A stretch of DNA of 63,852 nt, the filler included, from Kipferlia bialata (taxonomy: Eukaryota): assembly GCA_003568945.1 (NCBI GenBank). It is 6 parts of 6 records of this genome, joined end to end, with 100 filler letters (N's around TTAATTAATTAA, not from the genome) between each part and the next. Parts side by side here need not be neighbours in the genome. Positions count along the whole stretch, not along the records: positions 1 to 13,961 come from BDIP01000876.1; positions 14,062 to 19,073 come from BDIP01000877.1; positions 19,174 to 33,118 come from BDIP01000878.1; positions 33,219 to 47,161 come from BDIP01000879.1; positions 47,262 to 61,201 come from BDIP01000880.1; 1 more part is not named here. One strand, written 5' to 3'. Of the stretch, positions 53 to 61,157 are shown in pieces (within the stretch, counting starts at the first letter, position 1; each line of letters begins with the position of its first letter). Made by a program: the position numbers and the translations under genes. Under the pieces are notes generated by a model, which was not told where the DNA came from, did not search any database, and saw only the letters and a list, made by a program, of their open reading frames with translations.

Positions 53-2592
53 ACAGGGAAGATGATCGCAGAGGCAGGCCTTATGTACACTATATGCACA
101 CAAACAGTCGCTACCTGACTGACCCTGTCCTAGACACAGGGCGTGCAGAGGAGGGGCGGGAACGGGTGGACCTGGGGGGGTAAGGGTATGTACATATATA
201 CCCACACACATACAACTATACACCACCACCATATATATATGTATACAGTCATACATACACCCATACCTGGTTGACATGGCAGATGCGGGTCTGGATGTGG
301 TGGACCTGGCAGAGCCGGGTCGTGAAGAGCCGGGTCGTGAAGAGCCGGGTCGTGAAGAGCTGGGTCTGGGGTGAGGGGCGCTGGTAGCCGTCACATCCAA
401 GGCATACAGAGAGATAGATCGGGTATGTACTCTCTCTCTCTCATATGACATATATACCTAGCAGATGCTGGCCTGGACCTAGTGGATCTGGTGGACATGG
501 CAGAGGCAGGGCGGGACCTGGGGGTTGGGTAAGTGGGTAACCATAGTTATATATACATATATATGGTGAGTATATATGGTGAGTATATATATCTACCTTG
601 ATGCCAGCCTAGCCATGTCCCTGGAGTACTCCACCCTCTCCTCCATGTCATACCCAGTCAGACCGGCATCCCTGGGGGGTGAGGGGGGGAGGGGGATATT
701 TGTATGCCACACACACTAGTCATAGCTGACAATATAGTATACACACCACTCAACAACATACCTAGCACTCCTTGCGGACTGTGGTCTGCTGCTAGTCCTG
801 GAGGCAGGCCTGGCAGAGGAGGGCCTAGGGACACGGGCACTGCGCCTGCCCTAGCGTATCAGAGAGTGATGAGAGATATATACATATGACACTTACGCCA
901 GTATGCCCACACAAGATGTATAGGCTATGTAGTAAAGTGCCGCACCTGGGGTCTAGCGTTGTACCCTGAGCCTGAGGCAGGGGCAGTCCTTCCAAGCATA
1001 GCCGCAGTCTGGGGGGTGAGAAACAAGTGGTATGTATCCATCTATAGTGTATATATGTCATCCCGCCAAGTATGGCGGCAGTCTGAGGGGTGAGAAGGGG
1101 GACACAGGTCACATTTCACTAAGTATGATTCCATAACACAACTTCGTCACTACGGGTATAATACCACTATTCCCCACCTTCATTGTGAGTGCCCCTGTGC
1201 CACTACGTATTATTCCAAATTATCCGTGACTATATGTTAATATACCAGTCTCTACCTTCATATTGAGTGCCCCTGTGCCACTCAGTCCATCTCTGGCTGT
1301 ACCAGACAGAGACTTGGGGTGGTAGGTCAGGTGAGGGTCGTTCCTGGGGTCAGTAAGAATAGTATCACCCACTTGTCATAGAAGATGAGGGGGGGATGTA
1401 GTACATATATAAACATATATACTAGTACCTGCCGTCTGAGATGAGTGGCTCTGCCCTCCTCTGGTGGGAGTGTGTATATACTATATNNNNNNNAGATGAG
1501 TGGCTCTGCCCTCCTCTGGTGGGAGTGTGTATATACTATATACTATATCTATCTATATATATATATACTATCTACATCTATACCTGCCGTCTGAGATGAG
1601 TGGCTCTGCCCTCCTCTGGTGGGAGTGTGTCACAGCCAGGGACGAGGCAGTGCGCAGGAAGCGGAACCCAATGGTCCTGGAGGGTGAGGAGGGGGAAGAC
1701 ACAGTGACACATGTAAGGAACCAATGTGCATATACACCCACCTAGTGGTAGGGTCGAATGTGAGTGCACCCAGGCCAGGCATAGTGATGTGGCAGGTCTT
1801 TCTCTTGCGGAAGGCGTCGCCAAGGGCTGGGGGTGAGTGGCCTCCCTTCTTCAGATACCCCTACTTCCCAAGTATACATAATACATATATGTATATATAT
1901 GTATGCGTGTGTATGTGTGACCCATACACACACCTGTCATTGTGTGCTGGTGGCACAGTGTGACGGTGTGCCTTGGGAGAGAGGCAGCAAGGGCAACCTT
2001 CACAAAGTTGATCTGAGGTGGGTAGGTGAAGAGGAGAGCAAAGCAGCAGGCAGAGTCTGAACATCCTTAAAGAGATCTAGGGGCATAGAGAGGACATATG
2101 CCACCACTATGTGGCTTGTACACCACTTGATCATCTTATATACTATATACATGAGGTACCCACCTGCTTGAGAGGGGCAGAGTCAGAGGGGTGCTTGGCA
2201 AGGCTTCTGATGTTGTGGGCAGAGGCAAACCTGGGTTAGGCATACTCTGTAACAGAACCGTCAATGCAGAGTGGGCGATGGGAGGGAGAGAATAGTGATA
2301 TGGAACAGTGCGTATATACACTCTTGTATACACACGTCCTGACACACCTGGGAGCCACCACGAAGTTGGGGATCAGCCTGTTGCGGTACCCCCTCAGACC
2401 CACGTGGTACTTCTCGTCTGCAAAGCCAAACACACCAAGAAGCTTCACTCCACAAGAGGAACCGGTGGACATAACCTCCGAGATCTCGCTGCTCAGGGCA
2501 GACCAGTACATGCCAAGCTCTGCCAGAGTCACAGTAAGGAACGGAAGGCCATGCACGGCCTCAAGAAGCTCCTTCTCGCTATACCTAGCCAT
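50..2592 (-). CDS. CCDC81-like protein with tandem HU-type domains and a low-complexity S/P/R tail; multi-exon, runs off the window start
   Basis: Spliced reading: MARYSEKELLEAV...YWSALSSEISEVMSTGSSCGVKLLGVFGF...PNFVVAPRFASAHNI...INFVKVALAASLPRHTVTLCH...LGDAFRKRKTCHITMPGLGALTF. This fits, by eye, the two HU-like domains of eukaryotic CCDC81. Introns are GT-AG. A 15-bp coding repeat (SSRPG) lies at 311-360. Confidence 0.6.
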
Positions 2593-2761
2593 TTCAGAGC
2601 TAAAACAGCGTCGACCTTTCGAATACTGACGGCAAACTTCTCTTCCCGTTTTTGCCCCAGGGCTCTGAGGGTGTAGGTTTCACATCTTACTCACTCTTAC
2701 ACTGATCTCCCTGAGCCAGCACCCCTGCCCGTCAAGAGAGTCCTATAGTCTCTGTGGAGTG
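2593..2761. promoter_or_regulatory. Probable short bidirectional promoter between the CCDC81-like gene and DUS1
   Basis: About 170 bp without microsatellites between head-to-head starts (ATG at 2592 on -, candidate ATG at 2762 on +). Positional evidence only. Confidence 0.35.
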
Positions 2762-4478
2762 ATGCCAAAACCTGTGGAGATATGTGTGGACGATGTGGAG
2801 CTACCCACTGCCTACCCCCAGTTCGTAGGTACACACTCATATACTGACTCTCTGTCAACTCTCTGACTGTGCTATTTGTCTCTCTGTATCTGTCCCTCTC
2901 TCCCCTCTCCGTTGAGGTTACGTATTTTTCAGTATTTGGATGCCCCCCCCCCCCCACCGCAAGCAGCTATCCCTGCACGTTCTACTCAATGATGCATCCC
3001 AAGGATGCGTGCATTATATATCCCTCTAACAGTCAGGCATGGATCTTGCCAAGCTCAAGTGCATGGAGCTCCCTGAGGTGATGCCCCCCATCCCCACCAG
3101 CATCCACGCAAAGCCATCAGGTATATGCGTGTGGCTATCTCATTGAGAGATTCCTGGCCACTCATTAATATATCTGTACCTTCTGGGCATGTATACCTAT
3201 AAGGACATGGGCTGGCGTATCTATATATCTATACATCTATATATCTCAGTGCAGGAGGACTCCTGACTCCTCAGCACTCATATGTTGTATCAGTATGTGT
3301 CTGAGTACCAGTGATGTATATACTAGTGTGCACCCTTCTCACCCCCAGGGGAGGAGTTCCTGGCAACCCTGGGCAACCCCACCACGATGCTGGCTCCTAT
3401 GGTATGGGTTTCTTCTCTCCCTCCCTCCCACTCTCCCCCAAGTCCTTACCTCTCTGCAGACTGTTTCTCTCTCTCTCTCTCTCCCTATATATGTGTGTAT
3501 ATGTCCCCACCCCAGGTCCTTGCCTCTGAGACTGCCACCAGAGTGTTGACCAGGATGTACGGGGTGGATGTTACATACAGGTGTGGTACTCCCTTTGTAT
3601 GTACTCTGCAGTGTTATGTATCTACCACTATATGTGACCCTCACTATCACCTTCTCCCCCTCTCTCTCCCCTCTGACCCCCAGCCCCATGGTGAATGTGA
3701 TAGCAGCCACCACCAACCCAGACCTCAAGGGGATTGTCAAGAGGTACAGTGTGTATGTCATAGACACAGAGAGTGTAGATACGAAAGCTGCACACATTGT
3801 CCCTCCCTCTCTCCTCTCTCATACTAGGCTTGACTCTACTGACCGTGAGAGACCCATTATTGTACAGTATGCAGGCCATGAGGCAAGGTGAGATGCAGTG
3901 CATATACAGCGATAGTGACACTTCAGTACATCGACCACACTTCCATCACATATACCACTACACTTCATACCCGAGTGTAGGGATATGCAGTATACTATAG
4001 GACACTCCCTTGTATCACTTACCTTACCCTCCAGGTCCATGTTAAAGGTGGCCCTGAGTGATGTATATCATATTCTTTATCTATACTATGTTGTATTGTA
4101 TATGTCCTATCTCATACCCAGGTCCATGCTGCGTGTGGCCCTGAGGGTTGACCACAGACACTGTGACGCCATCGACATCAACTTTGGGTGCCCGCAGAAC
4201 GTGGCCAGGAAGGTATGTATATATAATAACCCTATATATATACCCTATATTATTACATATTATATATATTATTTGTCATATATTATATATACCCTATATA
4301 CCTGACCCCCCCCCCCCTTCTCACACTCAGGGTCACTACGGCTCCTACCTCCGCAAGCACTGGCCCCTGGTGTACCAGCTCATAGCCACCCTGCACGTGT
4401 ACCACCCCTTGCCAGTGACTGCCAAGATGAGGCTGCTGGACACACCGGAGCAGTCGGTGGACTTTGCCAGGTGACACG

Positions 4479-61026: not shown

Positions 61027-61072
<46 letters not shown>

Positions 61073-61157
61073 CAGACAGCATCATGGGGCCACCCCCTAC
61101 ACCTCCTAAGAGTAAGTATTATTATTAAATATACACACACACACCAATATATATATG

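Follow-up and report, generated by a model that had tools for sequence, protein, structure and literature searches.

How do introns come to hold partial copies of the exons beside them, splice sites included, and where did those copies come from? We addressed this question in a 63,852-nt stretch of DNA (the window) from Kipferlia bialata, a free-living protist of the metamonads, in which a sequence-only reading had pointed out that introns contain copies of the end of the preceding exon with its donor, or of the start of the following exon with its acceptor. We refer to these copies as echoes and to the intact exon as the live exon. Echoes are real junction-spanning copies of exon halves, splice signal included, and their divergence from live exons is of the coding type. 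We infer, with a slightly better than even chance of being right, that the halves were protein-coding in diverged alleles and were put into introns by unequal recombination between homologues.

Window and gene models

The K. bialata assembly was built from short reads with SPAdes and is a fragmented draft, and the genome paper reports 124,912 introns in AUGUSTUS models made with RNA hints (PMC5874029); the string "duplicat" has no occurrence in its main text. The window consists of six scaffolds joined artificially and does not represent a single locus. Our gene set comprised 14 genes with 170 exons and 156 introns. Two of the models (DUS, and Kelch-PSI KIPB_004199) are annotated proteins mapped exactly, while the remaining 12 were curated from reading frame and splice consensus. 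The intron set does not include the genes at 26.8-30.3 kb, the SET-like gene's 3' part or a number of short fragments.

Among the gene names proposed in the sequence-only reading, DUS and Kelch-PSI are firm, and those of CCDC81 and SET, like the RRM name used here, correspond to sub-threshold Pfam matches on single exons only. "Kelch-like", TauE and 7TM had no corresponding Pfam match on the exons tried, and a HMMER search with a 30-aa coiled-coil exon returned 0 matches.

Echoes are copies of exon halves

We compared each exon with its adjacent introns, taking as cut-off that exon's best score on the introns of other genes. Out of 153 raw matches, 71 were exon starts in the upstream intron and 69 were exon ends in the downstream intron, so that 140 had the place and polarity of a junction-spanning unit; the rest lay mid-exon (11) or had the opposite polarity (2). 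After 15 matches were dropped as overlapping, paralogous-exon, low-complexity or fragment matches, both of opposite polarity among them, 138 echoes were kept, 67 downstream (donor echoes) and 71 upstream (acceptor echoes). Weaker echoes visible by eye, for example at 6852, 11169 and 61105, fall outside this count. Every echo scores better on its own exon than on any other gene's intron, and a self-BLAST of the window gave 121 direct and 0 inverted matches less than 300 nt apart. The polarity follows from geometry, because any junction-spanning tandem unit gives it.

The echoes form 83 arrays of one (47 arrays), two (22), three (11), four (1) or five (2) copies; the same scan found 0 echoes in the LRR-like and thioredoxin genes. 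Their exon part is 12-62 nt long (median 29.5 nt) and has a median identity of 93% to the live exon, with 30 echoes identical. Units are spaced 104 nt apart (interquartile range 88-122, minimum 49), about the median length of an echo-free intron (107 nt). Echo-bearing introns have a median length of 303 nt, intron length rises by 109 nt per echo, and echoes make up about 45% of intron bases in the curated genes when measured as the excess over the echo-free median.

Splice signals were retained, with AG intact in 66 of 70 acceptor echoes and GT in 61 of 63 donor echoes (127 of 133 together). Echo acceptors scored 7.5 bits versus 9.1 bits for live acceptors (P 0.048), with 55 of 70 above the 10th percentile of live acceptors, and echo donors scored 5.7 versus 6.4 bits, which was not significant. 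The intron flanks of echoes had a median identity of 0.45 versus a background of 0.35; they were also low beside identical echoes (0.475, n=28), and about 10% of 133 were at least 85% identical. A dinucleotide tract (at least 4 units, at most 12 nt from the cut end) accompanied 29 of 67 donor and 34 of 71 acceptor echoes, compared with 31-32% at randomly chosen positions in these introns (P 0.03 for donor and 0.002 for acceptor echoes).

Three other accounts of this structure were rejected. Whole-exon copies that were cut later should give both polarities, and the polarity is one-way. Insertion of a whole new exon into an old exon with target-site overlap was set aside on inspection, since the extent to which acceptor and donor echoes overlap, in 17 exons, tracks exon length. 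Selection that preserves or removes the splice sites of echoes is not needed, as the loss of 6 in 133 agrees with plain decay.

Much of the sequence-only reading is borne out by these counts: one to five partial copies per exon end, consistent polarity, retained splice sites and intron growth. Its placement of echoes in most intron-rich genes holds by gene (12 of 14) and is too broad by intron, of which 63 of 156 (40%) carry them. Its claim that most copies end in a (TA)n or (GA)n tract was overstated (63 of 138, versus about 31% by chance), and the help it ascribed to microsatellites draws weak support from the enrichment at cut ends.

Divergence between echoes and live exons

Unique mismatches between echoes and live exons fell at first, second and third codon positions 59, 52 and 168 times over 805, 804 and 805 sites. 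The ratio of nonsynonymous to synonymous mismatches per site (pN/pS) was 0.25 in frame, versus 1.9-2.0 in shifted frames, and 158 of 279 changes were silent versus the 40% expected for one-sided selection (P 9e-9). Divergence was 0.045 at 0-fold sites (d0) and 0.267 at 4-fold sites (d4), a ratio of 0.17 (confidence interval 0.13-0.23, bootstrap over the 83 arrays). The coiled-coil gene and the remaining genes each gave a ratio of 0.17, the two annotated genes 0.13, and arrays with a single echo 0.24 (0.15-0.39). Even the 65 echoes without a 0-fold change differed at 44 of 258 4-fold sites (17%), and in one array a serine was conserved as AGT versus TCT/TCC.

A dead tandem copy would be expected to show a ratio of about 0.5, because mutations accumulate at all sites of the copy but only at silent sites of the live exon; in 120 neutral-decay simulations of a tandem copy, run through the same aligner, the ratio was 0.52 and the minimum 0.38. 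The observed ratio lies under all 120, and therefore plain self-duplication across the junction (slippage or sister exchange, with neutral decay and a silent bias arising only from selection on the live exon) does not fit. That account agrees with the geometry, polarity and spacing of the units and with the microsatellites at their cut ends, and the AG/GT loss is close to what 0.02-0.045 decay predicts. The silent bias nevertheless persisted once 41 trinucleotide contexts were matched (odds ratio 5.9) and in changes private to one echo (pN/pS 0.33), including those private to the nearer echo while the farther one equalled the live exon (pN/pS 0.35, P 1e-4). We therefore consider self-duplication, which the data of this window contradict, very improbable, and of the junction-spanning tandem duplication proposed from sequence we retain the tandem units and not the copying of an exon from itself followed by decay. 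A CpG effect was rejected as the cause of the silent bias, which persisted once CpG was removed (129/581 vs 113/2611 outside CpG).

Decay is also ongoing, with frameshifting gaps in 9 of 138 echoes and 2 nonsense changes. A two-part fit gave 0.01-0.045 decay since capture plus 0.18-0.25 silent divergence acquired while coding.

Comparison with read assemblies

Haplotype fragments joined in tandem by the assembler would likewise differ mostly at silent sites. We compared positions 250-13470 with contigs from a separate assembly of the reads of a DNA run, which may be the window's own source sample. The run contains 0.96 of sampled words of 3300-13290. Among the matches listed, 8 DNA contigs over 250-13470 showed 0 differences to the window at depths of 427-499, and 9 of the 28 echo/live pairs in this interval were bridged by single contigs; echoes with at least 31 identical letters cannot be bridged by these contigs. 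Two of the bridged echoes are in the CCDC81-like gene (contig 331-1455) and six in Kelch-PSI (contigs 7053-7602 and 7877-9138). Bridging contigs had a depth of 455-484, like that of echo-free contigs (427-499).

Mis-assembled haplotypes, which the sequence-only reading had named as a possible refutation, are thus unlikely for the nine bridged pairs. For the echoes as a whole we regard an assembly artefact as very improbable: no variant letters were seen among the matches listed, and arrays of three to five differing copies outnumber two haplotypes. In its favor are the fragmented short-read draft, the possible identity of the DNA run with the source sample, the interval of 250-13470 that the comparison spans, and signs that local errors or broken genes exist, namely two coiled-coil "live" exons with in-frame stops and one acceptor without AG. 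In addition, echo 1494-1530, an exact repeat beside a 7-N gap that is counted among the 138, is probably a scaffolding duplicate.

Splicing past echoes

A second run was treated as RNA because its contigs are spliced. RNA contig 9 (986 nt) has 734 nt remaining past CCDC81 exon 1, where echo-free exons 2-10 account for 699 nt; its predicted end is 331, and a DNA contig also stops at 331, within a 15-nt repeat. The length agrees to the base with the echo-free CCDC81 model, so that 3-4 echoes were skipped. RNA contig 10 fits the DUS model and rules out read-through from the echo acceptor at 4035, but length alone allows a 28-nt frameshifting mini-exon. Together the two contigs skip 4-5 echoes, and contigs hide rare forms. 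The expectation that the spliceosome ignores near-perfect decoys thus held in the few cases that RNA contigs can test. In every internal intron of both annotated models, the splice sites in use are those next to the intact exon; the annotated Kelch-PSI model is truncated, and begins and finishes on echoes.

Could echoes be, or have been, translated as alternative mini-exons or through alternative splice sites, under direct protein selection? This would account for the silent bias, and it is helped by echo sites that score like live donors or within the range of live acceptors, by the 14 of 127 read-throughs to an echo site that are in frame and stop-free, and by the loss of rare forms from RNA contigs. 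The structure of the echoes argues against it. An acceptor stands at the cut start in 1 of 67 donor echoes, and a donor lies near 28 of 71 acceptor echoes, under the 47% background; cut points differ within arrays, and the frameshifting gaps and nonsense changes speak against selection on the protein, as does the skipping of the echoes that RNA contigs 9 and 10 cross. We give this explanation little credence, about as little as self-duplication. Two-step or recursive splicing was rejected, since a starting GT was not enriched in exons with acceptor echoes (4 of 38 vs 26 of 118). Mis-splicing could be hidden by decay, because 113 of 127 read-throughs give a stop or a frameshift.

Source of the exon halves

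A homologous allele is the simplest source of the halves, because they are not closed mini-exons or truncated whole exons, and because protein searches with two test exons, one of DUS and one of Kelch-PSI, each returned a single protein and no paralogue. We propose that alleles would differ by about 0.2 at 4-fold sites, while slippage-prone, microsatellite-rich introns would barely align, so that homology would be confined mainly to exons. Out-of-register repair, on the homologue, of a break within an intron would then yield the exon, an intron stub, and the other allele's exon end and donor. At acceptors the mirror-image product of the same out-of-register repair or crossover would be expected, and further unequal exchange with an existing echo could add or swap copies. 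Only those units would survive that leave one exon intact and copy neither an exon nor an intron in full, so that their size would be limited to about the length of an intron. The spliceosome likely recognises each AG together with the next GT downstream, across a short exon, and residual mis-spliced RNA would mostly be destroyed. Echoes are thus likely to be passive and not regulators.

The halves might instead come from a coding copy that had diverged but was no ordinary allele: a homeologue or paralogue that was lost or has escaped notice (from an old hybrid, a polyploid or long-asexual homologues), or copies that slowly cycle through the live position and keep variants older than alleles. 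Such a source accounts for an identical silent bias and requires no extreme present-day diversity, and a d4 of 0.27 is large. We consider it unlikely, although the least unlikely of the alternatives. Only a single protein was found for each test exon, no contig among the matches listed carried other letters at 95% identity or more over 250-13470, and DUS is a single-copy housekeeping gene yet has such an echo. Two-way gene conversion within one chromosome gives, by our own derivation, a ratio of at least 0.5.

Several results weigh against the origin of echoes in diverged alleles. The 0.18-0.25 silent divergence that it requires while coding is very high for alleles. A second allele was not seen in the DNA run, which had no variant letters over 250-13470 among the matches listed. 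A metagenome scan with the Kelch-PSI protein gave 44 pattern matches, none confirmed, and no other allele or relative; a metagenome scan with an acceptor motif shared by ten introns (see below) gave 0 matches. Private changes showed a weaker bias at sites covered by at least three echoes (pN/pS 0.50, P 0.03). There was no clear age gradient when the nearest and the farthest echo were compared with the live exon (n=35; 15 closer, 9 further, 11 equal), the contrast in AT/GC direction between 0-fold and 4-fold changes was not significant (P 0.09), and 12 of the 14 gene models are our own curation.

Echo inventory and other features of the window

Coordinates of genes, echoes and other mapped features, counted along the whole window
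Feature	Position	Echoes or sites	Strand	Details
Artificial N44-linker-N44 joins	13962-14061, 19074-19173, 33119-33218, 47162-47261, 61202-61301
CCDC81-like gene	115-2592	1061..1530	-	3 donor (1494-1530, 1429-1475, 1178-1204) and 1 acceptor (1061-1082)
DUS gene	2762-5978	4035..4063	+	Single acceptor echo of exon 4122-4212; bridged in DNA contig 3511-4274
Kelch-PSI gene KIPB_004199	6553-13737	6938..13564	+	24 echoes
Kelch-PSI acceptor echoes		6938/7033/7108	+	Upstream of exon 7186
Kelch-PSI donor echoes		9079/9165/9251	+	Downstream of exon 8949-9032
RRM-like gene	14125-15929	15683..15703	+	1 donor echo
Unnamed gene	16704-18613	17331..18472	-	3 donor echoes
Membrane-protein gene ("7TM")	20698-26141	20862..25466	-	22 echoes
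SET-like gene, curated part	31210-32941	31469..32648	-	3 echoes
Coiled-coil gene, 3' part	33272-34836	33390..34713	-	9 echoes
Coiled-coil gene, 5' part	35823-47026	35949..46888	-	54 echoes; outside read-contig coverage
Two five-copy acceptor arrays, coiled-coil 5' part		38470-38936; 36003-36496	-
Unnamed gene	47372-48856	48252..48281	+	1 acceptor echo
Gene earlier called "Kelch-like"	49396-53540	49646..53211	-	9 echoes
TauE-like gene	57233-60972	58462..61105	-	7 counted
TauE-like, additional uncounted acceptor echo		Start 61105	-	Upstream of first curated exon
Introns with shared 3' motif		21571, 33796, 37793, 39556, 41002, 42390, 42925, 45460, 46267, 58220	-

Some observations bear on individual echoes. 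A 40-nt copy of the membrane-protein gene's last codons lies after its stop (20625-20664, minus strand), an echo of the end of the coding sequence that has no donor. In frame, the echoes at 38093-38241 look like longer variants of the coiled-coil exon 38345-38292. The thioredoxin-like gene (62264-62785, minus strand) has a WCPPC motif and three introns, with no echoes.

Others concern splice signals. In 148 of 155 AG introns a branch-like A lies 7-10 nt upstream of the 3' end, a fused branch and acceptor of the type known from Giardia and Trichomonas. The 3' motif (CT)n-CTACACCCTTA...YAG recurs in ten of the 156 live introns, distributed over three genes and three scaffolds; it may represent an optimal context for the branch point or a tract that is spreading. 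GAG and AAG acceptors occur at 8531, 60175, 59923 and 59731, and one GC donor at 48453. A 12-nt intronic repeat stands beside acceptors in several coiled-coil introns (43363-43406, 44275-44308, 44459-44494).

A few places suggest local faults in the assembly. At 6363-6620 two internal exons, one on the minus strand (acceptor 6469) and one on the plus strand (6553), stand back to back across a G-run; both genes are without 5' parts, and among the matches listed 538 letters of RNA record 11 are unplaced. This is probably a chimeric scaffold join. The coiled-coil exons 42579-42683 and 39413-39555 (minus strand) have an in-frame stop and a frame change, from a local assembly error or a broken gene, and the acceptor of an RRM-gene exon expected at 14880-14895 (plus strand) lacks AG, likely through a small assembly deletion or a broken site.

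Discussion

The sequence-only reading knew of no description of such an architecture on a genome-wide scale. The structure itself is in print, as "mirages", from amphioxus, where they are known for Adh3, the globins BflGb6 and BflGb9, TnC and PGBD5 (PMC3087553, PMC3902484). Mirages are tandem units across the exon-intron boundary, both 5' and 3', most of them with AG/GT; none has been seen to disturb the mRNA, and unequal crossing-over has been suggested as their origin (PMC3087553, PMC3902484). K. bialata echoes share the boundary-spanning unit in the adjoining intron, the occurrence at both boundaries and the retained AG/GT. They differ in occupying 40% of curated introns of a short-intron protist, mostly in 1-3 copies, where mirages are described from a small number of animal loci, their minisatellite-like units sharing 81-100% identity; the whole-unit homogeneity of mirages is absent from echoes, whose exon part and flanks have median identities of 93% and 45%. 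Coding-type divergence is a further difference from the mirage description, and the word "synonymous" is absent from the main text of PMC3087553.

In human F7 intron 7, the first unit of a 37-bp variable number tandem repeat spans the exon-intron border, and the downstream pseudo-donors are functional yet silent, the upstream site being chosen (PMC1557585). The F7 repeat is one homogeneous array with donors only, whereas K. bialata has donor and acceptor echoes; 5'-to-3' scanning, as in F7, accounts for skipped donor echoes and not for skipped upstream acceptor echoes. The Rogers model of intron gain (PMC4974935), in which an exonic AG|GT is duplicated in tandem (PMC3087553), shares with echoes a local duplication that copies splice signals and alters intron content. 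There the new intron opens with the next exon's start, while in K. bialata the annotated models and RNA contigs keep to the existing sites next to the intact exon, and the copy acts as a decoy. The 86-nt intron at 53393-53478 (minus strand) opens with a 14-nt copy of the next exon's start and is a candidate AG|GT intron gain, or an acceptor echo.

Tandem or mutually exclusive exon duplicates are intronic copies with coding-type divergence and both splice sites; echoes are halves with one site and strict polarity. Introners and other mobile introns place the same element in unrelated genes, and each K. bialata echo best matches its own exon. The literature searched, which covered few subscription papers, yielded no genome-wide, protist or silent-site account of such echoes. 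The structure has thus already been described, in mirages and the F7 repeat, and its density and coding-type divergence appear to be new.

Mirages have so far been a matter of a handful of animal loci with no settled mechanism, and K. bialata echoes add a divergence signature that points to the source. Metamonads are without non-homologous end joining; Fornicata, which are without Rad51A, possess two Dmc1; and in Metamonada sex is yet to be observed directly (PMC8516963). If echoes come from other alleles, they would be direct evidence, from sequence, that diverged homologues recombine in this group, and they may record past sex and make allele diversity readable from a single genome.

The arrays are also a large natural test of splice-site choice: sites of equal quality recur at intervals of about one intron length, in a lineage where recognition across the intron would be expected because introns are short. 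In annotation, echoes mislead gene finders, as in the truncated Kelch-PSI model.

Taken to the whole genome, we see somewhat less than an even chance that Kipferlia introns are a genome-wide archive of other alleles' exon halves, of some 100,000 copies if 138 per 156 introns holds for all 124,912. A single genome would then hold a record of outcrossing and of a very high population diversity in a metamonad, and would show exon-side choice of splice sites among near-perfect decoys in a protist with short introns.

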